A stretch of DNA of 64,000 bases from Candidatus Omnitrophota bacterium (GTDB lineage: Bacteria; Omnitrophota; Gorgyraeia; 2-01-FULL-45-10). The position numbers and the translations under genes were made by a program. Below, one piece after another: positions 5 to 64,000 of this stretch. The stretch's first letter is position 1. Every line of letters starts with the position of its first letter. The stretch is taken from positions 447 to 64,446 of the forward strand of contig JAPLME010000004.1 in assembly GCA_026387175.1 (NCBI GenBank), given 5' to 3'. The notes beneath the pieces are model-generated. The model was not told the DNA's origin. It did no database searches and saw only the letters and a list, made by a program, of their open reading frames with translations.

Positions 5-81
5 GGGCCTATAGCTCAGCTGGCTAGAGCGCCGTGCTGATAACGCGGAGGTCTCTGGTTCGACTCCAGATGGGCCCACCA
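5..81 (+). tRNA. tRNA-Ile (anticodon GAU) in the 16S-23S spacer
   Basis: Cloverleaf-compatible sequence gggcctatagctcagctggctagagcg...ctGATaacg...ggttcgactcc...gggcccacca with a GAT anticodon loop and a CCA end. This is the typical rrn spacer tRNA. Confidence 0.88.
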
Positions 82-101
82 GTTTGTACGATGAGATAAC
101 C

Positions 102-177
102 GGGGACATAGCTCAATTGGGAGAGCGCCAGCTTTGCAAGCTGGAGGTTACCGGTTCGATCCCGGTTGTCTCCACCA
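102..177 (+). tRNA. tRNA-Ala (anticodon UGC) in the 16S-23S spacer
   Basis: ggggacatagctcaattgggagagcgccagcttTGCaagctgg...ggttcgatcccggttgtctccacca. It has the G3:U70-type acceptor stem, a TGC anticodon and a CCA end. Confidence 0.88.
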
Positions 178-379
178 GCTTTTGCAATGGTCTTCAGCGG
201 CAAAAGCGTCCCGACGATCTAACTGGGGACAGCTTTTGCGCAGATAATAAACGACTTGATCATTCATTTTGTAACGATTTTGTTCCTTTATAAAAGGAAC
301 AGCTCGTTCTTTGACAACACAGGTTTAAGTGACAAAGGTAAATCGAGCATCAGCATGCCATTTTATGACGAATTAAAAT

Positions 380-3333
<2,954 letters not shown>

Positions 3334-3417
3334 TTTTATTTTTGAAAATGGCATTGATGCGATGTTCGATCGCACCCATGTTCACTTAAATCAGTGTTGT
3401 CGGAGTTTTACAGAAAT

Positions 3418-3535
3418 TCCCGGTGCTACCAGCGGAGGGGTCACACCCGTTCCCATTCCGAATACGGAAGTTAAGCCCTCCAGCGTCGATGGTACTTGCT
3501 GGGCAACTGGCTGGGAGAGTAGACCAGTGCCGGGT
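3418..3535 (+). rRNA. rrf: 5S ribosomal RNA
   Basis: Conserved 5S core ccgttcccattccgaatacggaagttaag...gtagaccagtgccggg. The ends can pair to form helix I. It lies immediately downstream of the 23S gene. Confidence 0.9.
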
Positions 3536-51368: not shown

Positions 51369-52109
51369 ATGTCCGAAAAAACAGCTAAAATATTAAAAGG
51401 CGTCCGCCATGGACGAATATCCGTCCATAAGGCGCTCTTATCGCTAAGGGATATGCCTTACAAGGATATCGGGTTCGCGAAGATCGACAGTCACAGGACC
51501 CTGAGGCGCGGTTTTCCGGAAGTGGTGTTTGGTAAAGGTAAGACCGTAGATCAGATAGTCGAAATATCAAAACGAATAATAGCCCATGACGGCATACTTC
51601 TTGTGACCCGCGCCCCGAAGGCAGCTTATCTGAAGCTTAGGCGGGCCTATCCAAAAGTTAAGTATGACGAGAGGGCCTCCTGCTTAAGTTACAGAGAAGA
51701 TCGTCCCATTCCGAAGAAAGGCCCGGTCCTGGTGATAACAGCGGGCACGGCCGATCTGCCTGTCGCGGAAGAGGCGCGCATAACTCTGGAGTTAATGGGA
51801 AACTCGGTCGAGATATTATGCGATGTCGGAGTCGCGGGAATACACAGGATACTCGATAAAAGGCACATTCTGGATAAGGCGAATGTCATAATAGTGATAG
51901 CGGGTATGGAGGGGGCGCTTGCGAGCGTAGTCAGCGGGCTAGTATCGAAGCCGGTGATAGCTGTTCCCACGAGCGTCGGCTACGGCGCAAGTTTCGAAGG
52001 GATAGCCCCGCTCCTTACGATGATGAATTCATGCTCGCCCGGAGTTTCGGTAGTCAATATCGATAACGGTTTCGGCGCGGGATATTTCGCATCCCTTATA
52101 AACAGATAG
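51369..52109 (+). CDS. larB: LarB-like PurE-family carboxylase/hydrolase (nickel-pincer cofactor biosynthesis)
   Basis: PurE-like fold with a LarB-specific N-terminal extension. GMEGALASVVSGL...VIAVPTSVGYGA. Confidence 0.75.
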   Translation: MSEKTAKILKGVRHGRISVHKALLSLRDMPYKDIGFAKIDSHRTLRRGFPEVVFGKGKTVDQIVEISKRIIAHDGILLVTRAPKAAYLKLRRAYPKVKYDERASCLSYREDRPIPKKGPVLVITAGTADLPVAEEARITLELMGNSVEILCDVGVAGIHRILDKRHILDKANVIIVIAGMEGALASVVSGLVSKPVIAVPTSVGYGASFEGIAPLLTMMNSCSPGVSVVNIDNGFGAGYFASLINR

Positions 52110-52115
52110 GATGCC

Positions 52116-53294
52116 ATGAAGATAGCGTATTTAGATTGTTTCAGCGGTATCAGCGGAGATATGACGATAGCCGCGTTTTTAGACGCGGGCTTAAAACTAC
52201 CCGTATTATCGGACGAGCTGAGTAAATTGAAGATAAAAGGCTATCGGCTTAAAGCCGGCAAGGTTAAGCGCGGAGCGATAGTCGGAACTAAATTTGATTG
52301 TATTGTCACAAAAGATTACAGCGGCCACAGGTCGTTAAAAAGCATAATCTCGATTATAGATAAGAGTTCGTTAAACCCCCGGATTAAAGCCATCTCTAAA
52401 GAGATGTTCAAAAATATAGGAAAGGCCGAAGCGAAGATACACGGGTCCGGAAAGAACGAAACTGTCTGGCTCCATGAGCTCGGCGACATAGATTCCATAA
52501 TAGATATCGTGGGCATCGCGATCGCGGTAGATTCGCTCGGCATCGACGAGGTTTACGCCTCGCGCGTAAATATGGGCAGGACATTCGTAAATACGGCCCA
52601 CGGGACCCTTCCGATACCGGCCCCCGCGGCGCTTGAGTTATTGAAGGGGGTGCCCACAAATATTCTGGACGTAGAAGCGGAACTTGTCACTCCTACCGGC
52701 GCAGGTTTATTAAAGACGCTTTCGAAAGGCTTCGGCGCGATGCCGTCGATGAAAATATCCGATATAGGCTACGGAGCGGGAACCAAAATAATTAAAGAGA
52801 TGCCTAATATGCTGCGTCTTATCATAGGGACGACGAGCGTGCCCTCGCCTAAAGAGGACAAGGTCCTGGTGGTCGAGACGAACATCGACGATATGAACCC
52901 GCAGTATTTCGAATATATTTTCGAGAGGCTGTTTTCCGCCGGAGCCCTCGACGTATATTCCACTCATATTCAGATGAAGAAGACGAGGCCTGCCTACAAG
53001 CTTACGGTGATATGCGAGCCGAAAGATCTGGATAAGATATCGTCGATAATATTCAGCGAAACCACGACGATCGGTATCAGGTTTTATGAGACGCTCAGGA
53101 TTAAGCTCGAAAGAAGGACAGTGAAGGCGAAGACGAAATATGGTAATATCCGGGTAAAGGTTAGCGCGCGCCCCGGTGAAATATTAACGGCTACGCCTGA
53201 ATACGATGATTGCCGTAAGGCCGCGCGCTCTAAGAAAGTACCGCTAAGAGAGGTTTCCGACAGGGCAAGGGAGGCCGCGTATGAAAACAGTTAA
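52116..53294 (+). CDS. larC: LarC-like (DUF111) nickel-insertion protein
   Basis: MKIAYLDCFSGISGDM N-terminus typical of LarC/DUF111. ~390 aa. Confidence 0.75.
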   Translation: MKIAYLDCFSGISGDMTIAAFLDAGLKLPVLSDELSKLKIKGYRLKAGKVKRGAIVGTKFDCIVTKDYSGHRSLKSIISIIDKSSLNPRIKAISKEMFKNIGKAEAKIHGSGKNETVWLHELGDIDSIIDIVGIAIAVDSLGIDEVYASRVNMGRTFVNTAHGTLPIPAPAALELLKGVPTNILDVEAELVTPTGAGLLKTLSKGFGAMPSMKISDIGYGAGTKIIKEMPNMLRLIIGTTSVPSPKEDKVLVVETNIDDMNPQYFEYIFERLFSAGALDVYSTHIQMKKTRPAYKLTVICEPKDLDKISSIIFSETTTIGIRFYETLRIKLERRTVKAKTKYGNIRVKVSARPGEILTATPEYDDCRKAARSKKVPLREVSDRAREAAYENS

Positions 53295-54951: not shown

Positions 54952-56229
54952 ATGACTAAAAAGCTTGACGCAATTATTTTTATTTTAATCGTAACAGTCG
55001 CGATGTGCGTGGTTTCGAGCGATTACGCTTATGCCGGTAACGCTTCACGTATGCTGGGATTTAGCGCGAGAGATGAAGCAATGGCCGGCGCTACCACTGC
55101 TTCCTCGGAGGATACATCATGCTTGGTGAGAAACCCCGCCGGACTTGTAAGGATAGGAAATAGGATCGACGCTTCGTATGAAAATCTTCTTTTTCACGAT
55201 GTAACGTTGAATACCACGGGGACCTCTCTTATACCAGGAGTGCCTTTTACAAACGCGGGTTTAACCCAGACCAGTAATATAAATTACATCCCCGGAGGTA
55301 ACGCAGGTGTTAGTTATCGCATACCGGGAACTGACAAATACCCGATATCTGTCGGTATGGGAGCATTTACAATAGGCGGGATGGCAGGTAACTACGCAAG
55401 TTCCAGGCTCAATACCGCATTATTGGCTAACGGGGGCAATTACGACAAGATGGTAGATTTAAGGACCATGAGATTTGCGCCGGGCATAGCGGCCGCATTT
55501 AACGATAAACTCTCTTTTGGTATGACAGCCAACATAGATCTTCAGGCATTACGCACCAATTTAGCTCACAGCATTACTCCTGCCGGGCTTACGCTTTTTT
55601 CAGAAACAGCGGGCGGAGGAAAATGGGATTTTACAGTTGGCGGAGGTTTCACCGCAGGCCTCCTATACGAGATTAATGATATGGTAAGCCTGGGAGCTTC
55701 CTACGAAAGCCACAACTGGCAGCAGGACCATTATAAATACAAAGATGTTCTGCCATATATAGATGAGCCGCCTATAATAAACTTGGGAGTATCTTTTAAG
55801 CCTATAAAGGATTTAGAGCTTACGTATGATACCCGCTATATTAACTGGACAGATGTGAAGCTTGCGAGGCTTGCTCCCAGACAAGGCGGTTTTGGGTGGA
55901 GGGACCAGTGGGTATTTGCTGTTGGTTCCGAATACACTACCTTTAAAGATAAGTTAAAACTCCGGCTTGGCTATAATTATGGAAGATCTCCTATTCAGCC
56001 GAATGTAGTCTTTGCCAATGCTCTTATGCCGGTAATTGTAGAGCACCATCTTACTACAGGCTTTTCATATTTTATCACGAAAGCCCTGTCTTTAGACTTT
56101 GCGTGGGAGCATCATTTTAGAAATACGATGGTGGACGATGGTGGCGATAGCGCGGATCTTATCGGCACAGGCACACAGGTTACAGGGGCATTGGATGTGC
56201 TAAGCATCGGATTAGGATATAAGTTTTAG
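54952..56229 (+). CDS. FadL/OmpP1/TodX-family outer-membrane hydrophobic-compound channel
   Basis: Signal peptide. Conserved N-terminal hatch NPAGL. Alternating amphipathic beta-strands. C-terminal aromatic residue (LGYKF). Lower GC and different codon usage than upstream genes. Confidence 0.75.
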   Translation: MTKKLDAIIFILIVTVAMCVVSSDYAYAGNASRMLGFSARDEAMAGATTASSEDTSCLVRNPAGLVRIGNRIDASYENLLFHDVTLNTTGTSLIPGVPFTNAGLTQTSNINYIPGGNAGVSYRIPGTDKYPISVGMGAFTIGGMAGNYASSRLNTALLANGGNYDKMVDLRTMRFAPGIAAAFNDKLSFGMTANIDLQALRTNLAHSITPAGLTLFSETAGGGKWDFTVGGGFTAGLLYEINDMVSLGASYESHNWQQDHYKYKDVLPYIDEPPIINLGVSFKPIKDLELTYDTRYINWTDVKLARLAPRQGGFGWRDQWVFAVGSEYTTFKDKLKLRLGYNYGRSPIQPNVVFANALMPVIVEHHLTTGFSYFITKALSLDFAWEHHFRNTMVDDGGDSADLIGTGTQVTGALDVLSIGLGYKF

Positions 56230-56261
56230 ATAACAGATCAGTTGTCAGGATTGTTTTCGAA

Positions 56262-56294
56262 ATAGGGGAGACATAAAACCTCCCCTATTTTTTC
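56262..56294 (+). terminator. Rho-independent terminator after the FadL-like gene
   Basis: ataggggag/ctcccctat 9-bp stem, 9-nt loop, then tttttt. Confidence 0.8.
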
Positions 56295-56333
56295 TGCATA
56301 CTGTTAATCCATTAAATATTAAGATATCATCTA

Positions 56334-56362
56334 TTGACAATCTAAAAAGTGTAGTGTATACT
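56334..56362 (+). promoter_or_regulatory. Perfect consensus sigma70 promoter P2 (ttgaca, 17 nt, tatact)
   Basis: Read directly from the sequence. Drives the 56.47-56.72 kb small-ORF region. Confidence 0.55.
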
Positions 56363-56477
56363 TTATGTAATAATAAAAGAAAGTTAGATAAAACTTAATA
56401 GCTCATCATTTTTATAGTGGTGGGCTATAATTGTCTCTGGCAAAATATAGATCTTTAATAAGAGGGAGGTGGTATGT

Positions 56478-56717
56478 GTGAGAGTGCTAGTGCTTCTTTC
56501 GAGTAATCCGGGAGATGGATTTTTGGTGAAGCTTCATACTGAAGAACTTGTGCGCGAGATTAAGAACCTTATCAGCAAGCGCAGTAATTCGAAAGCCATG
56601 GTAACAGCCCTTACTAAGGGGCGGATCGAGAGGGAGGTTGGGCACCACGATTCAAATGCTGTCGATGCCGAACTTGTTCTGACCCAAGATAGGGTTTGCT
56701 GGAATCCGGCTAAATAA
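56478..56717 (+). CDS. Hypothetical small protein (~79 aa from a GTG start)
   Basis: ORF-track ORF 56469-56717. A GTG at 56478 is 8 nt downstream of the strong SD gggagg. No recognisable domain. The alternative reading is a 10-codon ORF from ATG 56474 (MCESASASFE). Confidence 0.35.
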   Translation: MRVLVLLSSNPGDGFLVKLHTEELVREIKNLISKRSNSKAMVTALTKGRIEREVGHHDSNAVDAELVLTQDRVCWNPAK

Positions 56718-56827
56718 TCTTAAGCGATTTCAGAAAAATGCGTAAAATATTTAATTATTCCTATTTCTGCAACACATCCAATTCCAATAAGTTATATCAA
56801 TTTTTCCAAGTATTTAATTCCTAACTC

Positions 56828-56855
56828 TTGACAACCCCTAATTATCGTGTATACT
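56828..56855 (+). promoter_or_regulatory. Consensus sigma70 promoter P3 (ttgaca, 16 nt, tatact), paralogous to P1
   Basis: cctaactcttgacaacccctaattatcgtgtatactt. Followed by a 9-bp 5'UTR hairpin gtgccctta...taagggcac (about 56879-56908). Confidence 0.6.
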
Positions 56856-56963
56856 TTGCAGCACATTAGCGAAGTGTATGTGCCCTTATATAAAGCTATG
56901 TAAGGGCACAATAGTCTATACCAAAATAGTATAAACTATATAAATCAGAAGGTGGTGTTAGTT

Positions 56964-57161
56964 ATGGCAGATGATACCGTCTTCACTGTGCAGGAATTAT
57001 CCACTTACCTAAGGATGAAACCGGTAACTATTTACAAGCACGCAAAGGCTGGTAAATTGCCCGCATTCAAGGTTGGTGCGAGCTGGCGGTTTAAGAAATC
57101 GACTATAGACCGCTGGATTTCTAATCAGGAAGACAAAGAAAATAACGGCGGTTCAAATTAG
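56964..57161 (+). CDS. Excisionase-family helix-turn-helix DNA-binding protein (~65 aa)
   Basis: FTVQELSTYLRMKPVTIYKHAKAGKLPAFKVGASWRFKKSTIDRWI matches the excisionase/MerR-like HTH family. SD aaggtgg. ORF-track start 56952 (GTG); ATG 56964 is preferred. Confidence 0.7.
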   Translation: MADDTVFTVQELSTYLRMKPVTIYKHAKAGKLPAFKVGASWRFKKSTIDRWISNQEDKENNGGSN

Positions 57162-57164
57162 CGC

Positions 57165-57205
57165 CTGACTGTAATAATTAATAGTCAGGCGTTTTTATTT
57201 TAACT
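57165..57205 (+). terminator. Rho-independent terminator after the HTH gene
   Basis: gcctgact/agtcaggc stem with a 13-nt loop followed by tttttatttt. Confidence 0.7.
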
Positions 57206-57242: not shown

Positions 57243-57665
57243 ATGCTTAATATAGAAGAGATAAAGAGTCTTATACCGCAAAGATACCCTTTTCTTATGA
57301 TAGATAGGGTAATTGATATTAAATATGGGGAATATATAAAGGCTTATAAGAATATAAGCATGAATGAAGAGTATTTTAAGGGACATTTTCCTGATTCCGC
57401 GATCTTCCCCGGCGTCCTTACCACTGAGGCTATGGCCCAGGCCGTATGTGTACTGGTGAAGAAGAGCATTAAGGATTTTACCCCTACGCAGTTTTATATC
57501 ACTAATATGAAGATACGCTTTCTAAAGGCTATAGTGCCGGGGGACAGGCTTTATATTACCGCAAAAGTCGTCAAGATGGCGCAGATAGGCGGCATATTTG
57601 AGACGGAGGCTACCGTAGAGAATGACATTGTGGCCAAGGGAGAGATGACCTTTGCCTGCAAATAA
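57243..57665 (+). CDS. FabZ-like hotdog-fold 3-hydroxyacyl-ACP dehydratase
   Basis: LIPQRYPFLMIDRV, catalytic His in GHFP, catalytic Glu in TTEAMAQ. Low GC (~35 percent). Confidence 0.85.
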   Translation: MLNIEEIKSLIPQRYPFLMIDRVIDIKYGEYIKAYKNISMNEEYFKGHFPDSAIFPGVLTTEAMAQAVCVLVKKSIKDFTPTQFYITNMKIRFLKAIVPGDRLYITAKVVKMAQIGGIFETEATVENDIVAKGEMTFACK

Positions 57666-58902
57666 GAGAGTGGTTGTTACGGGAATAGGTATCATATCTT
57701 CAATAGGTACCGGCAAGGACGTGTTCTGGCAATCGCTAAGGGCCGGTAAGTCCGGAATAAGGCCGATCACATTATTCGATACCTCGACAACCAGAGCCAA
57801 AACAGCCGGAGAGATAACCGATTTCAAAGCGGAGAGTTTCTTGGGCGAAAGAGGATTAAGGACATTCGACAGGGTTACAAAACTGGTCCTGTCAGCGGCA
57901 AAGCTTGCGCTTGACGATACTGGTTTTAAATATCCGCTGGATGAGGATCTGTCGGTAAGGACAGGCGTATCTCTCGGGTCCACTCTCGGCAGTGTATGGT
58001 CCATAAGCGAATTTGATAAACAGGGATTAAGGGAAGGGCCAAGCACGGTGAATCCTGCGTTATTTCCAAATACTGTTATAAATGCCCCCGCAAGCCAGAT
58101 ATCTATTAAATATAATATAAAAGGCTTTAATACCACTATATCGACAGGATTTGCCTCAAGCTTAGACGCAATTGATTACGCGGCTAATTTCATTAAGTTA
58201 TATGACTATGACGTTGTCCTGGCGGGCGGGGTTGAAGAATTGTGTTTGCAGACATTCCTTGGGTTTCATAAGATAGGCCATCTGGCCGGCTCAAGAGAAG
58301 GTAAGGCGGAAGTGAATTGTCCTTTCGATAAGAGACGAAACGGCATAATCCTCGGAGAAGGCGCCTGTATATTTATACTGGAGGAGATGGAGCATGCCAG
58401 GAAAAGAGGCGCCAATATTTATGCCGAGATTTTAGGATACGGCGCGAGTTTTGATCCTAAGAGTAAGAATGTATACAGCCCTAAGGCTGATGGCGCGACA
58501 AGGGCGATAAAGCTTGCGCTGGAGGAATCCGGCACCGCGCCCGATGAGATCGATTATATATCGGCATGCGCTAACTCTACACTCGATTGCGATGTGATGG
58601 AGACGCGCGCGGTCAATCGTGTCTTTAGCGATAATGCGAAGAAGATACCGGTAAGCTCTATTAAATCCATGATAGGCGACACCTTCAGCGCGAGCGGCGC
58701 GATGAACGTCGCCGCTTCGATAGGCGCGATAAAAGAAAACTTCATACCGCCCACGATCAATTACGAGGTAAAGGATATACGATGTGACTTGGACTACGTG
58801 CCGAATAACTCTAGAGACAAAAAAGTAGCGAAAGTCCTGATAAACTCATTTACGCCCACGGGCGCGAACTCGAGCCTGGTAGTGGGAAAGGTCGCGGGAT
58901 AG
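57652..58902 (+). CDS. Ketosynthase-fold protein lacking the Cys-His-His triad (chain-length-factor / KS-beta-like partner)
   Basis: Thiolase/KAS fold throughout. The active-site TACxxG is replaced by STGFAS. HGTGT is replaced by CANST. The second His (GHT) is replaced by GDT. TTG start overlaps the FabZ-like gene. Confidence 0.8.
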   Translation: MPANKRVVVTGIGIISSIGTGKDVFWQSLRAGKSGIRPITLFDTSTTRAKTAGEITDFKAESFLGERGLRTFDRVTKLVLSAAKLALDDTGFKYPLDEDLSVRTGVSLGSTLGSVWSISEFDKQGLREGPSTVNPALFPNTVINAPASQISIKYNIKGFNTTISTGFASSLDAIDYAANFIKLYDYDVVLAGGVEELCLQTFLGFHKIGHLAGSREGKAEVNCPFDKRRNGIILGEGACIFILEEMEHARKRGANIYAEILGYGASFDPKSKNVYSPKADGATRAIKLALEESGTAPDEIDYISACANSTLDCDVMETRAVNRVFSDNAKKIPVSSIKSMIGDTFSASGAMNVAASIGAIKENFIPPTINYEVKDIRCDLDYVPNNSRDKKVAKVLINSFTPTGANSSLVVGKVAG

Positions 58903-58906
58903 AGAC

Positions 58907-60010
58907 ATGAGAAATGTTTTCATCACAGGCGCGACGGGATTTTTGGGTAGCTACTTATTGAAACGTATACTGGATGACGGTGATACGCGGCCGATTGTTC
59001 TGGCGAGGGGCAAAAAGACAGGATCGGCAGCCGAGAGAGTTAAAAATATAGCGAAATATTTTTACGGTGGCAATTACGCTACGGCACTTAAAAGGATCAG
59101 GGTGGTAGAGGGCGAGGTAGATAAAGAATTTCTCGGTATAGATAATGCGATTAGGAAGCCTCTCATTAAAGAGGTAGATGAGATTTATCATTCAGCGGCT
59201 ATAGCCGAGTTTCGCATACCGCTCGATAGGATACGAAGATCAAATGTTATCGGCACTGAAAATGTCCTTAAATTCGCGATGGAATGTAAGGCTTCCGGCC
59301 ATATGAAAAAACTGAATCATATAAGCACAACGTTTGTTGCCGGCAAAAAAAGCGGCGTATTTTATGAAAAGGATCTTGATGTTGGGCAGAAATTCAATAA
59401 TACATACGAGCAGAGTAAATTTGAGGCGGAAATCCTGGTGCATAAGTATATGAAAAAAGGACTTACCGCGGCCATATTCCGGCCCAGCATACTAACCGGC
59501 GATTACGTTGCAGGGAGAACTTCAAATTTTAAAATGCTTTATCAACCTCTGCGGTTCTTTGTTAGAGAGCTTTTTGATGCTATTCCGGCTGATAGATCGA
59601 CGTGTTTTAATATGATACCCGTAGATTTTACGGCGGAAGCTATTTGCGCTATCACCAAAGAGAATGAGTCCATAGGCGGAACGTATCACATAGCGAATAC
59701 GCGTATAATGCCATTGGGCAGCTTTATTGATGTAGCCAGTGATTTCTTTGGTTTTAAAAAGCCGGAATTCGTTCCCTTAAAAGACTTTAGCATGAATACG
59801 CTTACGACAGTTCAGAAAAACCTTATAGAGCCATATATTCCGTATTTTAATTACAAGACTATATTTGATTCAGTAAATACGATGGATATGCTAGAAGAAA
59901 AGGGCTTTCAGTGTCCGATTGTTGATACAGATTTTCTGGTTAAGCTATTTAAGTTTTGCGATGAGACTGGATTTATGAAAAGAAAGAAGCGATATGTTAC
60001 TGCAGGGTAA
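58907..60010 (+). CDS. Thioester-reductase-type (NAD_binding_4 / fatty acyl reductase-like) SDR protein
   Basis: ITGATGFLGSYLL Rossmann motif, catalytic YEQSK (YxxxK). ~370 aa with the C-terminal substrate domain typical of terminal R domains and acyl-ACP/CoA reductases. Confidence 0.75.
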   Translation: MRNVFITGATGFLGSYLLKRILDDGDTRPIVLARGKKTGSAAERVKNIAKYFYGGNYATALKRIRVVEGEVDKEFLGIDNAIRKPLIKEVDEIYHSAAIAEFRIPLDRIRRSNVIGTENVLKFAMECKASGHMKKLNHISTTFVAGKKSGVFYEKDLDVGQKFNNTYEQSKFEAEILVHKYMKKGLTAAIFRPSILTGDYVAGRTSNFKMLYQPLRFFVRELFDAIPADRSTCFNMIPVDFTAEAICAITKENESIGGTYHIANTRIMPLGSFIDVASDFFGFKKPEFVPLKDFSMNTLTTVQKNLIEPYIPYFNYKTIFDSVNTMDMLEEKGFQCPIVDTDFLVKLFKFCDETGFMKRKKRYVTAG

Positions 60011-60731
60011 AGTCGTAATAGTTACGGGCGGCACCCGCGGTATTGGCAGGGCTACTGTTTTTGAGTTCATCCAAAGTGGGGCCAAAGTGGTTTTTACATA
60101 TTTAAAGAGTGATGAATCAGCCGGAATAATATTGGATGAGATAAAGGAGATGGGTGGTGAGGCTGTGGCATTAAAGGCTGATACTCGCGATTACAAAGAA
60201 GCGAAAAGGGTTATTGAGGAAACAATTAATAAGTTTGGCACGGTCGATATCCTGGTCAACAACGCGGGGATAATTAAAGATAAAGCGCTTATGATGATGG
60301 ATCCTACAGAATGGCAAGAGGTTATCGACACTAATCTTACCGGTTATTTTAATATGGCAAAGGCATGCATCGTCACTATGCTGAAGCAGAAAAGCGGTAA
60401 CATTGTAAACATATCTTCTATCGCCGGTGTTGTGGGCACGCCGCGCCAGGTAAATTATTCGAGTGCTAAGGCCGGTATAATAGGTCTCACGAAGTCACTT
60501 GCAAAGGAAGTGGGCCCGTATAATATCAGGGTAAACGCTGTGGCGCCCGGCTATATCGAGACAGACATGACTAAAGATTTGAAGCAGAAAGAGAATCTTT
60601 TGAAGATGATACCCTCCGCAAGGTTCGGAAGGCCGGAAGATGTCGCAAAAGTTGTTTTATTTTTAGCAAGCAGCAAGGCAGGTTATATAACCGGACAAGT
60701 TATTAAAGTTGATGGCGGTTTAGCAATCTAA
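59994..60731 (+). CDS. 3-oxoacyl-ACP reductase (FabG-like ketoreductase)
   Basis: TGGTRGIGRA cofactor motif. NAG, S...YSSAK (S-Y-K triad). ~245 aa classical SDR. Confidence 0.88.
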   Translation: MLLQGKVVIVTGGTRGIGRATVFEFIQSGAKVVFTYLKSDESAGIILDEIKEMGGEAVALKADTRDYKEAKRVIEETINKFGTVDILVNNAGIIKDKALMMMDPTEWQEVIDTNLTGYFNMAKACIVTMLKQKSGNIVNISSIAGVVGTPRQVNYSSAKAGIIGLTKSLAKEVGPYNIRVNAVAPGYIETDMTKDLKQKENLLKMIPSARFGRPEDVAKVVLFLASSKAGYITGQVIKVDGGLAI

Positions 60732-60755
60732 TTTTAAATTAAGGAGACAGTATAA

Positions 60756-61010
60756 ATGGCTATTCAATCCGAAAATATTGAAAAAGAGATGCGCTCGCTT
60801 GTAGCTGAGATACTTGAGATACAAGAAGACAAGATAAAGCCGAGTATGAAATTTGTTGAGGAGCTCGGCATGGACTCTATGATGGCTCTTGAAATTCTTG
60901 CTTCGGCTGAGAAGAAATATAAGATTAAAATACCGGAAGAACATCTTACGAAAGTGACGACGCTTAAGAACCTGATCGAGGTAGTGCAGAATATCATGGA
61001 GAAGAAGTAA
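60756..61010 (+). CDS. Dedicated acyl carrier protein
   Basis: 84 aa. Phosphopantetheine attachment site LGMDSMMALE (DS motif). Acidic helix II. Confidence 0.85.
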   Translation: MAIQSENIEKEMRSLVAEILEIQEDKIKPSMKFVEELGMDSMMALEILASAEKKYKIKIPEEHLTKVTTLKNLIEVVQNIMEKK

Positions 61011-61015
61011 AACGC

Positions 61016-62227
61016 GTGCACAATAACAGAGTGGTGGTAACAGGTTTAGGGGTTGTAAGTTCTATCGGAATCGGCAAGGATAAATTTTGGAATAATCTAA
61101 TAGCTGGTAAATCGGGGGTAAGCAAGGTAGAGTCTTTTGACACCTCAAAATATGAAAATCATATGGGTGGGGAAATAAAAGATTTTGACCCGAATGATTT
61201 TATTAAAAAAGATAAAATCAAGAGATTGGGACGCGGATCTCAATTTGCTATTGCGGCAACGAAACTAGCCCTTTCTGATTCAGGAGTAGAATTCGAAAAG
61301 ATAGATAAGAATAGAATTGGTGCGATAATTGGCACAACAATGGCAGATTCTCAGAGACTGGAAGAGATGGATAAGACGTGGGTTGAAAGTAGCGAGAAAG
61401 ATGTGGATGCGAAATTGATACCGCAGTATCCCGGAAGCATTATCGCATCGAGCATAGGATTTGAGCTGGGTGTTCAAAATCTTGTATATTCTATACCGAC
61501 TGCCTGCTCAGCAGGTAATTATTGCATAGGGTATTCTTATGATATGATCAGGACAGGGAAAGCAGACTTTATGTTGGCAGGCGGCTCGGATTCTTTTTCA
61601 AGAGTTGCTTTTACTGGATTTAATCGCCTCTTTGCTGTGGCCCCAGAAAAGTGCCAGCCATTTGATAGGAATAGAAAAGGTATGATGGTCGGAGAGGGAT
61701 CCGGAGTTTTAGTTTTAGAATCATTAGATAGTGCGCGGAAAAGAAGAGCAAATATATATGCGGAAGTATTGGGATATGCCTTGAGCTGCGATGCTCATCA
61801 CATGACGGCTCCTTCGGTTGAAGGTATTTCACGTGTTATGAAGAAAGCGATAAAGAATGCGGATATTCATTCAGAAGATGTCGATTATATCTCGGCACAT
61901 GGAACGGGAACGCCGGCGAACGATAAGGCAGAGTGCGCGGCAGTGAAAGAAGTATTTGGCGATGGGTATAAAGAGGTGCCCGTTAGCTCTATTAAATCTA
62001 TGCTTGGCCATACAATGGGCGCCGCAAGCGCTATAGAAGCAATTACATGTTGCCTTGCGATAAAAGAAGGATCTATTCCGCCTACGATAAATTATGAAAC
62101 ATCGGATCCGGAGTGTGATATCGATTGCGTTCCCAACATTGCGAAAAAAAAGACCGTGCGAATCGCGCTGAATAACTCTCTTGCTTTCGGTGGGAACGAT
62201 GCATGCCTTGTACTGGGAAAGCTATAA
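61016..62227 (+). CDS. Beta-ketoacyl-ACP synthase (active KS, FabF-like)
   Basis: Active-site Cys in PTACSAGN. His in SAHGTGT. His in GHTMGAA. ~400 aa. Confidence 0.88.
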   Translation: MHNNRVVVTGLGVVSSIGIGKDKFWNNLIAGKSGVSKVESFDTSKYENHMGGEIKDFDPNDFIKKDKIKRLGRGSQFAIAATKLALSDSGVEFEKIDKNRIGAIIGTTMADSQRLEEMDKTWVESSEKDVDAKLIPQYPGSIIASSIGFELGVQNLVYSIPTACSAGNYCIGYSYDMIRTGKADFMLAGGSDSFSRVAFTGFNRLFAVAPEKCQPFDRNRKGMMVGEGSGVLVLESLDSARKRRANIYAEVLGYALSCDAHHMTAPSVEGISRVMKKAIKNADIHSEDVDYISAHGTGTPANDKAECAAVKEVFGDGYKEVPVSSIKSMLGHTMGAASAIEAITCCLAIKEGSIPPTINYETSDPECDIDCVPNIAKKKTVRIALNNSLAFGGNDACLVLGKL

Positions 62228-62230
62228 GAA

Positions 62231-63631
62231 ATGAAAAATAAATACGATGCGATTATAATCGGTGCTGGGATAAGCGGTCTTATTTGTGGAACATATCTTG
62301 CGAAAAATGGCCTAAAGGTGTTAATGCTGGAGAAAAATAAAAATGCTGGAGGTTGTTGTGCATCTTTTTATAGGAAAGGCATAAAATTTGACGCGGGCGC
62401 ACACATTATAGGAGAATGCGGTAAGGGTGGGATGTTGCGCACAATATTAACTTATCTTGGCGTTAATCAAAAATTTTATCAACCAAAATTTACTGATCGC
62501 ATATTTTTTCCAGAGGATATCGTTGAAATACCTAACGATTTAGCTGGGTATGCAGCTTTATTACAGCAAAAATTTAAAAAAGAGCGGAATAATATATCGC
62601 GATTTTTTAATAAATTCATCAGTTGTTCAAATATCGCAAATATAGCGCTGATTCAAAAAAATTATTCCGGCATTACCTACCAAGAATTGTTAAATAAATA
62701 TTTTATAAGTAACAGGTTGAAAGCGATTTTATCGGCTCAAAGCGGCTATTTAGGAGTAGCACCAAATAAAGTCAACGCGGCAGCTATGTGCGCAATGTTG
62801 TCCAGTTATTTGGCAAAGGGAGCATATTATCCGGTCGGGGGGTCTCAATCTTTTGCAGATAATATTATGAAAAGATTTATTTATTATGGTGGAGAGCTAA
62901 AGCTTGCATCACGCGTAAGTAGGATACTGCTAAGTAATGGTGCGGCTGAAGGCGTTGCAGTGAATGAAAAAGAAATCTTTAAAACAAATAAAATAGTCTC
63001 AAGCATAGATTTGCATACTACTTTATTCGAACTCCTAAAAAATGAAAAAATAAAATCTCAAGTTAAGACACGCTTAACTTTATCTAAAGAAACACCGTCA
63101 TTATTTGTTCTGTATTTAGGGGTAGCCGCTGATACAAAGTTAATAGAAAGAAGTGTCGGTTGGCATTACGCGCATTATGAAATAAATAAGTTTGAGTTTG
63201 ATGATTGTGTATATATAACGGCACCTACTTTATATGATAGCTCCTTGTCGCCAAAAGGTATACATGCTGTTCAACTATTTATAAAATCACGTTATGATTT
63301 TAATAGTATGCGGAATTGGCATGCTGCGAAAGACATCTTTATAAAAGAAGCGTTATTAAAACTTGATATGTTAATTCCAGGGGTGAAGGAAAAGATTACA
63401 GTTATTGAAAGCGCTTCTCCGGAAACTATCCGGCGATTTACAAATAATAAAAATGGAGCCGCTTATGGATGGATGCTTACAACGGGGCAATATGAACGAA
63501 ATAAAATAATTGCGCAAAATGTCAATGATGGTTTATTTTTAACAGGGCATTGGACAAACCCTGGCGGGGGTATAGTCGCTGTAGGTATTTCAGGATGCGC
63601 TGCGGCAAAAAAAATATTGAAAAGTTTATGA
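62231..63631 (+). CDS. CrtI/phytoene-desaturase-family FAD-dependent oxidoreductase
   Basis: N-terminal dinucleotide fold AIIIGAGISGLICGTYLAKNG...LEKNKNAGG. C-terminal HWTNPGGGIVAVGISG typical of the CrtI/amine oxidase family. Very low GC (~33 percent). Confidence 0.8.
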   Translation: MKNKYDAIIIGAGISGLICGTYLAKNGLKVLMLEKNKNAGGCCASFYRKGIKFDAGAHIIGECGKGGMLRTILTYLGVNQKFYQPKFTDRIFFPEDIVEIPNDLAGYAALLQQKFKKERNNISRFFNKFISCSNIANIALIQKNYSGITYQELLNKYFISNRLKAILSAQSGYLGVAPNKVNAAAMCAMLSSYLAKGAYYPVGGSQSFADNIMKRFIYYGGELKLASRVSRILLSNGAAEGVAVNEKEIFKTNKIVSSIDLHTTLFELLKNEKIKSQVKTRLTLSKETPSLFVLYLGVAADTKLIERSVGWHYAHYEINKFEFDDCVYITAPTLYDSSLSPKGIHAVQLFIKSRYDFNSMRNWHAAKDIFIKEALLKLDMLIPGVKEKITVIESASPETIRRFTNNKNGAAYGWMLTTGQYERNKIIAQNVNDGLFLTGHWTNPGGGIVAVGISGCAAAKKILKSL

Positions 63632-64000
63632 AAAATTCGATACTTGCAATAATTAAACATCGAAGAACTATCAGGACTTTTAATAATCGAAAAGTTACTA
63701 AAAATGTGCTTAAGAATATTTTAGAAGCTGGCAGATGGGCGCCCTGTCCTAATAATGTGCAACCATGGATTTTTTATGTCACAAAAAGAAATAATTTTTA
63801 TACTCAAAAAATCATAAAAATTATTCAAAAAGAATCAAAAAACGAAAGTATCGGGGTTTCCGTTTTTTTAAATGACTCGATCAAAATTTTTAAATCCGCA
63901 CCAATCATGATTTATATATTTAAAAAATGTATTTTAGCAAAAAGATACGCTGTTTTAGGGCCCTCTTATCAACAAAAAGGGGAGTTGTTTGAGCATCAAG
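63628..64000 (+). CDS. Nitroreductase-family protein (partial, runs off the window end)
   Basis: MKNSILAIIKHRRTIRTFNNRKVTKNVLKNILEAGRWAPCPNNVQPW matches the nitroreductase N-terminus (RRxxR, then AxxAPS-like). ATGA overlap with the upstream gene. Confidence 0.65.
   Translation, partial: MKNSILAIIKHRRTIRTFNNRKVTKNVLKNILEAGRWAPCPNNVQPWIFYVTKRNNFYTQKIIKIIQKESKNESIGVSVFLNDSIKIFKSAPIMIYIFKKCILAKRYAVLGPSYQQKGELFEHQ

Follow-up and report, generated by a model that had tools for sequence, protein, structure and literature searches.

In the genome of a Candidatus Omnitrophota bacterium, we found an operon of eight genes that appears to encode a dedicated type II fatty-acid/polyketide-like synthase of the family of the anammox gene set known as Cluster I. 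We put the probability of this reading, together with the mechanism and the regulatory context proposed below, at about 0.6. The window, i.e., the whole stretch of DNA that was analysed, comprises 64,000 nucleotides (assembly GCA_026387175.1, contig JAPLME010000004.1, positions 447 to 64,446). The operon occupies its + strand from 57243 to about 64215, and the listing of open reading frames (ORFs) gives seven complete genes and a last one cut at the window end. The reading is based above all on two ketosynthase (KS) proteins, one active and one catalytically dead, which by sequence are orthologous to the anammox pair amxFabF2/amxFabFmut.

An original prediction, made from the DNA letters without database searches, had placed eight tightly packed + strand genes here, and all of them were present. 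The spacing is indeed tight, although the predicted range of 0–15 nt was too narrow: the measured intergenic spacings are −14, +4, −17, +24, +5, +3 and −4 nt. Using Pfam and NCBIfam profile searches of each protein, with the solved relatives ranked against the Protein Data Bank (PDB), we could uphold every domain call of the predicted enzyme inventory. The genes of the operon are as follows (aa, amino acids; ACP, acyl carrier protein; SDR, short-chain dehydrogenase/reductase).

57243..57665, + strand: FabZ-type 3-hydroxyacyl-ACP dehydratase, 140 aa, with His48 and Glu62 (NF000582)
57652..58902, + strand: dead KS homologue, chain-length-factor-like partner, 416 aa, TTG start, Phe167/Cys306/Asp343
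58907..60010, + strand: stand-alone thioester-reductase-type extended SDR, 367 aa, TGATGFLG at residues 7–14, Tyr167/Lys171 (PF07993)
59994..60731, + strand: FabG-type 3-oxoacyl-ACP reductase, 245 aa (TIGR01830)
60756..61010, + strand: dedicated ACP, 84 aa, Ser41 in an MDSM motif (PF00550)
61016..62227, + strand: active KS, 403 aa, Cys164, His295 and His332, gate Phe391
62231..63631, + strand: CrtI-family FAD flavoenzyme ("phytoene dehydrogenase homologue"), 466 aa, GC 0.356 (PF01593)
63628..64000 (full end about 64215), + strand: nitroreductase-family flavoprotein, 195 aa in full, GC 0.30 (PF00881)

Within the window lie 124 of the 195 nitroreductase codons. The full length was read from the metagenomic contig L002, which has 4 mismatches in the 3536 bases shared with the window and adds 1.5 kb past its end. 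MCX5677792.1, a protein of a metagenome-assembled genome (MAG) of Candidatus Omnitrophota, matches the dead KS at 100% identity. Relatives were collected in a species-level scan (one genome per species) with a dead-KS alignment. The scan gave a dead-KS relative in up to 476 species-level genomes, which is an upper bound because one of the two search patterns was not specific to the dead KS. The best 80 of these 476 genomes were examined as loci, and a gene census was made by tblastn across the 44 loci with enough flank.

The ketosynthase pair and its anammox counterparts

Both KS-like proteins contain the N- and C-terminal ketoacyl-synt domains of Pfam. Using a residue-by-residue alignment with Bacillus subtilis FabF, we showed that in the first of them the catalytic Cys is replaced by Phe167 and the two His residues by Cys306 and Asp343. 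In the second protein the triad is intact (Cys164, His295 and His332). The pairing of an active KS with a catalytically dead partner was thus predicted correctly, the triad of the latter being genuinely replaced and not shifted. At the same positions, the dead KS proteins of anammox bacteria carry Val/Ile/Thr, Asn/Cys and Glu.

It turned out that the best solved relative of the active KS is amxFabF2 (9s5h_B, 1.2e-152), followed by Iga11 (2e-107) and FabF (3e-94). For the dead KS it is amxFabFmut (9s5h_C, 1.7e-117), and the next is a FabF at 1e-83. On the fabF equivalog model of NCBIfam, the active KS scores 450 bits at a cut-off of 494, and only a subfamily model was passed. Identity to the counterparts from Brocadia and Scalindua is 57–58% for the KS and 49–51% for the dead KS. 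In neighbour-joining trees of 56 sequences with 200 bootstraps, the dead KS proteins are monophyletic (100%), and the partner KS proteins form one clade that excludes Iga11 (94%). Within the dead-KS clade, the anammox dead KS is sister to all others at 73% bootstrap. The phylogenetic check suggested in the original prediction thus gave a grouping with the anammox proteins, in a comparison whose outsiders were limited to B. subtilis FabF and Iga11; ApeO/ApeC and the aromatic KS-alpha/KS-beta were left out. The tunnel residues Phe135 and Val139 of amxFabFmut correspond to Phe138 and Val142 here and are invariant across all aligned dead KS proteins, and the gate Phe394 of the anammox active subunit is kept as Phe391. 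The PDB ranking, the identities, the bootstrap clades and the conserved tunnel and gate residues together indicate that, by sequence, the KS and the dead KS of the window are orthologous to amxFabF2 and amxFabFmut. Of the likenesses named in the prediction, that to the anammox ladderane cluster proved to be the best lead, since both proteins match 9s5h_B/C far above any FabF and the trees agree.

In Brocadia fulgida, amxFabF2 and amxFabFmut form a KS/chain-length-factor-like heterodimer (PDB 9s5h/9s5i; bioRxiv 10.64898/2026.05.19.726425, May 2026 preprint). Malonyl-amxACP is decarboxylated only by the two proteins together, and in crosslinking the heterodimer favoured C6–C8 probes over C16. 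According to the same preprint, the residues that shape this preference, tested by mutation, are Phe394 in the active subunit and, in the dead one, Phe135 and Val139. Given the orthology to this experimentally characterised pair, the active and the dead KS of the window would form a KS/chain-length-factor-like heterodimer, which starts the synthesis through decarboxylation of malonyl-ACP and elongates the chain on the ACP encoded in the cluster. Extrapolated from the anammox heterodimer, the conservation of the tunnel residues would point to a chain of short or medium length. FabG and FabZ would then turn each beta-keto group into an enoyl group. Since no enoyl reductase (ER) is encoded in the cluster, the chain would remain unsaturated unless a housekeeping or flavin enzyme reduces the enoyl groups.

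The ACP matches PF00550 at 4e-14 and scores 52 bits at an AcpP cut-off of 70; it passed no AcpP model of NCBIfam. Its top three solved relatives are all anammox amxACPs (7qv0_D, 7auf and 9s5i_E), and it is 41–44% identical to the anammox ACPs. FabZ is above the cut-off of NF000582 with 146 bits. It is 40–45% identical to the anammox amxFabZ, compared with only 35% to the FabZ of the Omnitrophota locus L013. At one position of the acyl tunnel, canonical FabZ has Gly and amxFabZ has Ile69 (PMC10139942). The residue there is Cys in the window protein; in the cluster-linked FabZs of the relatives it is Ile in 25, Cys in 22, Ala in 8, Leu in 2, Met in 1 and Gly in 0. FabG exceeds the cut-off of TIGR01830 with 303 bits and reaches 268 bits on the flexirubin FlxB model, the cut-off of which is 340.

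Anammox Cluster I, represented by kuste3603-3608 of Kuenenia, is a putative ladderane cluster. At the loci of Brocadia (L015) and Scalindua (L016), the gene order is ACP, FabZ, KS, dead KS, flavoenzyme and B12 radical S-adenosylmethionine (SAM) enzyme, the last of these immediately 3' of the flavoenzyme gene in both. The Omnitrophota operon shares with Cluster I the orthologous active and dead KS and the pattern of the dead triad, with a hydrophobic residue at the Cys site and Cys/Asn and Asp/Glu at the His sites. It also shares the mutation-tested tunnel and gate residues, a dedicated ACP nearest to amxACP, a FabZ with a non-Gly tunnel residue and a CrtI-like flavoenzyme right after the KS genes. 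The differences concern both gene order and content. The order here is FabZ, dead KS, ..., ACP, KS, in contrast to ACP, FabZ, KS, dead KS in anammox bacteria, and FabG, the thioester reductase and the nitroreductase are added. The Omnitrophota operon is flanked by an HTH_17 gene and a seven-transmembrane (7TM) kinase, with response regulators and an HD-GYP protein in relatives. Its FabZ tunnel residue is Cys and not Ile, and its host belongs to Omnitrophota, which are not known for ladderanes. The Omnitrophota operon also has no B12 radical-SAM gene: none was found in the window at 54–64 kb, in the 1.5-kb extension or beside any of the related loci (44/44). Because this enzyme is missing, cyclobutane (ladderane) rings are not expected in the product.

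Chain release and the flavin enzymes

The SDR matches NAD_binding_4 (PF07993) at 1e-54 and 186 bits and keeps the TGATGFLG NAD(P)H motif as well as Tyr167/Lys171. Its best solved relative is the reductase domain of MxaA from myxalamid synthesis (PDB 4u7w) at 3e-34. The window reductase resembles MxaA in being an extended SDR whose cofactor and Tyr/Lys motifs are intact; unlike MxaA, it is a stand-alone protein without carrier-domain fusion, and the two are about 30% similar over 268 residues.

The slot after the dead KS is occupied either by a thioester reductase (12 related loci and the window) or by a protein of 339–377 aa (12 loci), and never by both. The latter protein has no Pfam match and usually lies between the dead KS and FabG. 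Its profile matches the cyanobacterial long-chain acyl-ACP reductase 6jzq (5e-44) and the N-terminal part of PigE, 4ppm (2e-46), and NCBIfam concurs in calling it an acyl-ACP reductase homologue. It was located as follows.

L018 11227-12345, L021 11241-12374, L025 11257-12381 and 9 more loci: acyl-ACP reductase homologue replacing the thioester reductase

The alternation of the thioester reductase and the acyl-ACP reductase homologue at one site is a non-orthologous displacement. Since two unrelated families of acyl-thioester-to-aldehyde reductases alternate at one position, the sequences support reduction of the ACP-bound chain to an aldehyde as the step encoded in that slot. Judging from its family assignment, its intact NAD(P)H and Tyr/Lys motifs and the substitution in sister loci, the window enzyme would free the acyl-ACP chain as an aldehyde and possibly carry it on to the alcohol. 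These same lines of evidence agree with the predicted role of the SDR as a reductive release enzyme. The cyanobacterial acyl-ACP reductase (PDB 6jzq) is comparable in that its homologue occupies the same position in the sister loci. A difference is that no aldehyde-deformylating oxygenase or aminotransferase follows the window reductase. Some sister clusters contain methyltransferases, one membrane ICMT/PEMT-like and one class I SAM-dependent (L013 11987-12643; L045 15763-16650). This suggests alternative tailoring or release in those clusters, for example, as a methyl ester.

The flavoenzyme matches PF01593 and crtI_fam and is under the equivalog cut-offs. Its identity to the anammox Cluster I flavoenzyme is 37–40%, compared with 29–32% to those of the near relatives L011 and L013, and the tree places it with the anammox enzyme (54% bootstrap). 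In the databases, even the closest relative shares just 48% identity with the window flavoenzyme, which by sequence is an isolated lineage. The anammox homologue Kuste3607 was found to be without CrtI activity and has no assigned function (PMC4790861). The nitroreductase matches PF00881 at 1.9e-13, and its best solved relative, 3gfa, is an uncharacterised structural-genomics protein. We also considered that the nitroreductase could be a fatty-acid enone reductase, a type with the nitroreductase fold, and dropped this candidate because none was among the solved-structure matches. The nitroreductase gene adjoins the CrtI-like gene in 9 of the 10 loci that have it. In the loci with the thioester reductase, the CrtI-like gene is present in 9/9 and the nitroreductase in 7/9. 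Apparently, the two flavin enzymes may act as a pair on the C=C bonds of the chain, the nitroreductase serving as redox partner in a desaturation, isomerisation or saturation. At two loci, L029 (7669-9102 and 9699-11144) and L075, a CrtI-like paralogue of the window/anammox type and a different one of the L011 type flank the nitroreductase.

Gene neighbourhood and distribution among relatives

The cluster had been predicted to continue past 64 kb. This was not confirmed: about 215 nt complete the nitroreductase, and 9 nt past its stop a HisKA_7TM/GAF histidine kinase starts (L002). In related genomes, genes for two response regulators and a GAF/HD-GYP protein come next after the kinase gene. 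The reading past the window comes from the 1.5 kb of L002 and the synteny in relatives; judged on these, the biosynthetic genes stop with the nitroreductase and none follows further on. The transcription unit probably continues beyond it. On the other side of the operon, the following features precede fabZ (HTH, helix-turn-helix).

56952..57161, + strand: small HTH_17 (excisionase/MerR-like) DNA-binding protein, 69 aa (PF12728, 7.5e-16)
57160..57193, + strand: terminator-like hairpin between the HTH gene and fabZ, a 13-bp stem then TTTTTATTTT

The HTH_17 protein is likely the regulator of the unit. Its homologue is found directly upstream of the cluster in most Omnitrophota loci, also where the LarB/LarC/PDZ synteny is lost. 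The HTH_17 gene and the kinase module alike stay attached where the upstream LarB/LarC/PDZ/HAMP genes are no longer syntenic, and neither occurs in the anammox loci or the remotest members of the family. The HTH_17 gene upstream, the 7TM kinase after a 9-nt gap and the response regulators and HD-GYP protein in relatives make it probable that production is coupled to a sensor in the membrane, being controlled by that sensor or else supplying its ligand. In the des-desK-desR genes of B. subtilis and the rpfF-rpfC-rpfG genes of Xanthomonas, the latter for the diffusible signal factor (DSF), lipid enzymes are likewise encoded beside a multi-pass membrane histidine kinase. The window locus resembles them in having a lipid operon beside a membrane kinase, and the output of Rpf is an HD-GYP protein, as in the relatives of the window locus. 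The biosynthetic enzymes are of another kind, and the likeness is an analogy of architecture only.

The hairpin lies directly 3' of the HTH_17 stop and has a fold energy of −22 kcal/mol. The fold of the whole segment as RNA was uninformative and was replaced by an explicit scan for a hairpin with a T-tail. Of 35 related loci, 12 have a comparable structure behind the HTH gene (L011, L019, L020, L026, L028, L029, L033, L036, L041, L046, L050 and L075), and of 35 shuffled controls none has one. The hairpin may serve as a terminator or attenuator that sets the regulator apart from the operon.

The genes of the cluster have a GC content of 0.30–0.48 (mean 0.42; GC at third codon positions, GC3, 0.42), which decreases towards the 3' end. 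For the 55 upstream ORFs it is 0.489 ± 0.028 (GC3 0.58). The low-GC stretch exceeds the cluster and includes the FadL-like gene at 54952-56229 (GC3 0.44) and the downstream kinase (0.36), and a similar but weaker dip is seen in several relatives. The predicted dip in GC exists, but it is not clean evidence of recent transfer. We rejected low GC as proof of recent horizontal transfer because the cluster occupies the same position across Omnitrophota and the dip reaches the kinase and the FadL-like gene and recurs in relatives. Within the cluster, GC drops to 0.36 and 0.30 in the last two genes, and the identity to the near relative L011 is 80% for the dead KS but only 32% for the flavoenzyme. 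This makes it plausible that the 3' module of flavoenzyme and nitroreductase was replaced within Omnitrophota.

The FadL-like gene just upstream encodes a FadL/TodX-family outer-membrane channel for hydrophobic compounds (PF03349, 1.5e-22). No homologue was found in any of the 80 related loci, and the gene is therefore a lineage-specific insertion beside the cluster. The channel might move a hydrophobic product. Between it and the HTH_17 gene lies an AT-rich spacer of 720 bp (56230-56950, about 38% GC) with an 82-codon ORF without family match (56469-56717) and two sigma-70-like promoter matches, each 11/12 (56334-56362 and 56828-56855). Farther upstream, at 51369-53294, are LarB-like (AIRC) and LarC-like (Ni_insertion) genes for the nickel-pincer cofactor, in a block with MgtC, HTH_17, PDZ and HAMP genes; many Omnitrophota have the block in synteny, upstream of the cluster. 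The window begins with the 3' part of an rRNA operon (5-3535), namely tRNA-Ile(GAT) at 5-81, tRNA-Ala(TGC) at 102-177, 23S at 380-3335 and 5S at 3419-3535.

The best 80 loci belong to Omnitrophota (some deposited as "uncultured Planctomycetia") and, in about 8 cases, to Nitrospirota/Thermodesulfovibrionales. In the census of 44 loci, the ketoreductase (KR) was found in 41, FabZ in 34, the KS in 30, the ACP in 29, the CrtI-like flavoenzyme in 22, the nitroreductase in 10, the thioester reductase in 9 and the B12 radical-SAM enzyme in 0. All eight gene types, as in the window, occur together in six species (L023, L029, L030, L031, L045 and L050). The core (dead KS, KR, ACP, FabZ and KS) is located at the same chromosomal position in many Omnitrophota species. 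The near relative L011 is without FabZ, and the KS is not linked in 14 of the 44 loci. In the complete 1.43-Mb Omnitrophota chromosome CP070780.1 (L021, 9755-13360), there are only the HTH gene, the dead KS, the acyl-ACP reductase homologue, the KR and the ACP; an active KS, the flavoenzyme and the kinase were not found nearby, and the dead KS is without a linked partner. A distant Omnitrophota subgroup (L049, L051, L053, L057 and about 10 more) has only the dead KS, the KR and FabZ, with no linked KS, ACP, HTH gene or kinase.

Alternative explanations and meaning

The operon could be the housekeeping fatty acid synthase of small-genome Omnitrophota, which would supply bulk membrane acyl chains, with the reductase giving alcohols for ether lipids. 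The core does lie at one chromosomal position in many species, FabG and FabZ exceed the NCBIfam equivalog cut-offs, and no second fab paralogue was found within the 64-kb window. However, the unit is without FabD, FabH, FabI and acetyl-CoA carboxylase, the ACP is under all AcpP cut-offs, and the KS is under that of fabF. The gene content varies, unlike that of an essential pathway: FabZ is missing from L011, the KS is unlinked in 14/44 loci, and the cluster of CP070780.1 is reduced. Anammox bacteria have a canonical fab operon as well as the homologous cluster (PMC4790861). In the literature we found nothing usable on fatty acid synthesis in Omnitrophota. Judging from the locus and its relatives, we consider the housekeeping explanation unlikely, in line with the original prediction, which had set the operon apart from housekeeping fab genes; the missing FabD, FabH and FabI and the failure of every AcpP model agree with this.

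It is also conceivable, though we regard it as rather improbable, that the product is a small signal, a short- or medium-chain unsaturated aldehyde or alcohol. This signal would be sensed by the co-transcribed 7TM kinase and passed on to the response regulators and the HD-GYP phosphodiesterase of cyclic di-GMP, by analogy with the DSF/Rpf, CAI-1/Cqs and 3-OH-PAME/Phc systems. The 9-nt distance from the nitroreductase stop to the kinase speaks for this, as does the fact that the HTH gene, the biosynthetic genes, the kinase, the two response regulators and the HD-GYP gene occur together even without the upstream synteny. The tunnel-constricting residues match those of the anammox heterodimer that favoured C6–C8 probes over C16, and the position in the tunnel by which amxFabZ is restricted to short chains is occupied by a residue other than Gly in the cluster FabZ. 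Swapped release enzymes across lineages and methyltransferases in some relatives are as in secondary-metabolite tailoring, and a FadL/TodX channel gene adjoins the cluster, in this lineage only. All these points, however, are contextual. A sensor of membrane state over a lipid-modifying operon, as in DesK/DesR and des, explains the same linkage, and the distant members (Nitrospirota and the dead KS-KR-FabZ type) are without the kinase. A product-sensing kinase and a sensor that regulates a membrane-lipid operon are indistinguishable from conserved linkage.

A ladderane (cyclobutane lipid) pathway in a non-anammox bacterium seems extremely improbable, even though the operon has all but one of the six gene types of anammox Cluster I and the anammox proteins are the closest solved or characterised relatives. 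Such loci in Omnitrophota MAGs have also been labelled "ladderane" by antiSMASH (PMC9902471). The B12 radical-SAM enzyme, the sole proposed cyclising enzyme, is present in both anammox loci but absent here and beside 44/44 loci, and ladderane lipids have been reported only from anammox bacteria (PMC10139942; PMC9902471).

The original prediction emphasised aryl polyenes. Together with flexirubin-type pigments, this reading is supported by the KS/dead-KS pair with KR and dehydratase (DH) and without ER, which is the logic of polyene synthesis. The FabG score of 268 bits on the FlxB model, the ApeI-like and ApeP-like matches of the dehydratase in a precomputed Pfam list, and the second place of Iga11, the ketosynthase of a polyene type II polyketide synthase (PKS), among the solved relatives of the KS point the same way. 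The FlxB score is nevertheless beneath the 340-bit cut-off, and no other solved KS comes nearly as close to the KS and the dead KS as the anammox pair does. Between 53 kb and the kinase and in the related loci, we found no adenylating/CoA-ligase starter enzyme, thioesterase, LolA/MMPL export gene, acyltransferase or glycosyltransferase, and a second ACP is likewise missing in and beside the unit. The emphasis on aryl polyenes was therefore abandoned, since the starter enzyme, the thioesterase and the LolA/MMPL exporter are not there, and a pigment cluster appears very unlikely. The aryl polyene (Ape) clusters with ApeO/ApeC do share with the window a KS/dead-KS pair, a KR, hotdog dehydratases and a dedicated ACP, but reductive release is not part of them and their hallmark genes are missing at the window locus. 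The ishigamide system (Iga11/Iga12, KR Iga13 and DH Iga16; PDB 6kxd-6kxf) is similar in its KS/chain-length-factor heterodimer, its discrete KR, DH and ACP and its lack of an ER, and Iga11 is the second-best solved relative of the window KS (2e-107). It differs in that chain length factors of the Iga12 type are absent among the PDB relatives of the dead KS, the host is an actinobacterium, release is not reductive and gives an amide, and there are no CrtI-like or nitroreductase genes. Aromatic type II PKS are defined by a Gln at the active-site position of the chain length factor. This candidate was rejected because the dead KS has Phe167 there and no cyclases are present.

Several points weigh against reading the operon as a dedicated synthase of the Cluster I family. 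No member of the family, the anammox cluster included, has a known product, and elongation by the anammox heterodimer has not been demonstrated past acetoacetyl-ACP (bioRxiv 10.64898/2026.05.19.726425). The cluster contains no malonyl transferase or enoyl reductase, so the pathway relies on housekeeping genes elsewhere. The trees carry just two outside sequences, B. subtilis FabF and Iga11. On TIGR01746 the SDR scores 164 bits at a cut-off of 213, with a match that spans residues 3-356 (model 1-370). The weakest step is the role given to the CrtI-like flavoenzyme and the nitroreductase, which comes from adjacency only. The adjacency of the kinase could reflect conserved gene order and not functional coupling.

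As early as 2009, "ladderane-like" clusters were pointed out in bacteria other than anammox, namely Desulfotalea and Geobacter (PMC2649909). The antiSMASH "ladderane" calls in Omnitrophota MAGs were reported as expressed and of unknown function (PMC9902471). The claim of the original prediction that the cluster is not identical to any known one thus holds with the qualification that such calls in Omnitrophota had already been published. Cluster I has been described as exclusive to ladderane producers (PMC10139942; bioRxiv 10.64898/2026.05.19.726425). This exclusivity holds only for the complete six-gene set. In the searchable literature, we found no gene-by-gene orthology of the Omnitrophota cluster with anammox Cluster I and no description of the consistent absence of the radical-SAM gene, of the alternating reductive release enzymes or of the operonic link to the HTH gene and the 7TM kinase/HD-GYP module.

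The biosynthesis of ladderanes is a long-standing problem, and here five of the six Cluster I gene types have orthologue-like counterparts in a tight operon of a non-anammox bacterium. Since these five types and widespread dead-KS relatives occur outside anammox bacteria, the ladderane-specific part of Cluster I is narrowed to the B12 radical-SAM enzyme. With its own ketoreductase and release enzyme, the Omnitrophota operon should yield a free, extractable aldehyde or alcohol, which offers a tractable route to the product of the shared module. Tentatively, and with more doubt than confidence, one may see in it a form of the ladderane machinery without the radical-SAM enzyme, either ancestral or parallel. 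The shared module would then make a short or medium unsaturated chain, which anammox bacteria cyclise via the B12 radical-SAM enzyme and Omnitrophota release as an aldehyde or alcohol that is read by, or regulated through, the 7TM kinase/HD-GYP circuit. If this is true, expression of the cluster would expose the substrate of the ladderane cyclase, because the Omnitrophota cluster, unlike the anammox one, carries a KR and a release enzyme. For the phylum itself, in which hardly any members have been cultured, the operon is a sign of a lipid or lipid-signal pathway that is coupled to a sensor kinase of the membrane and has so far gone unstudied.

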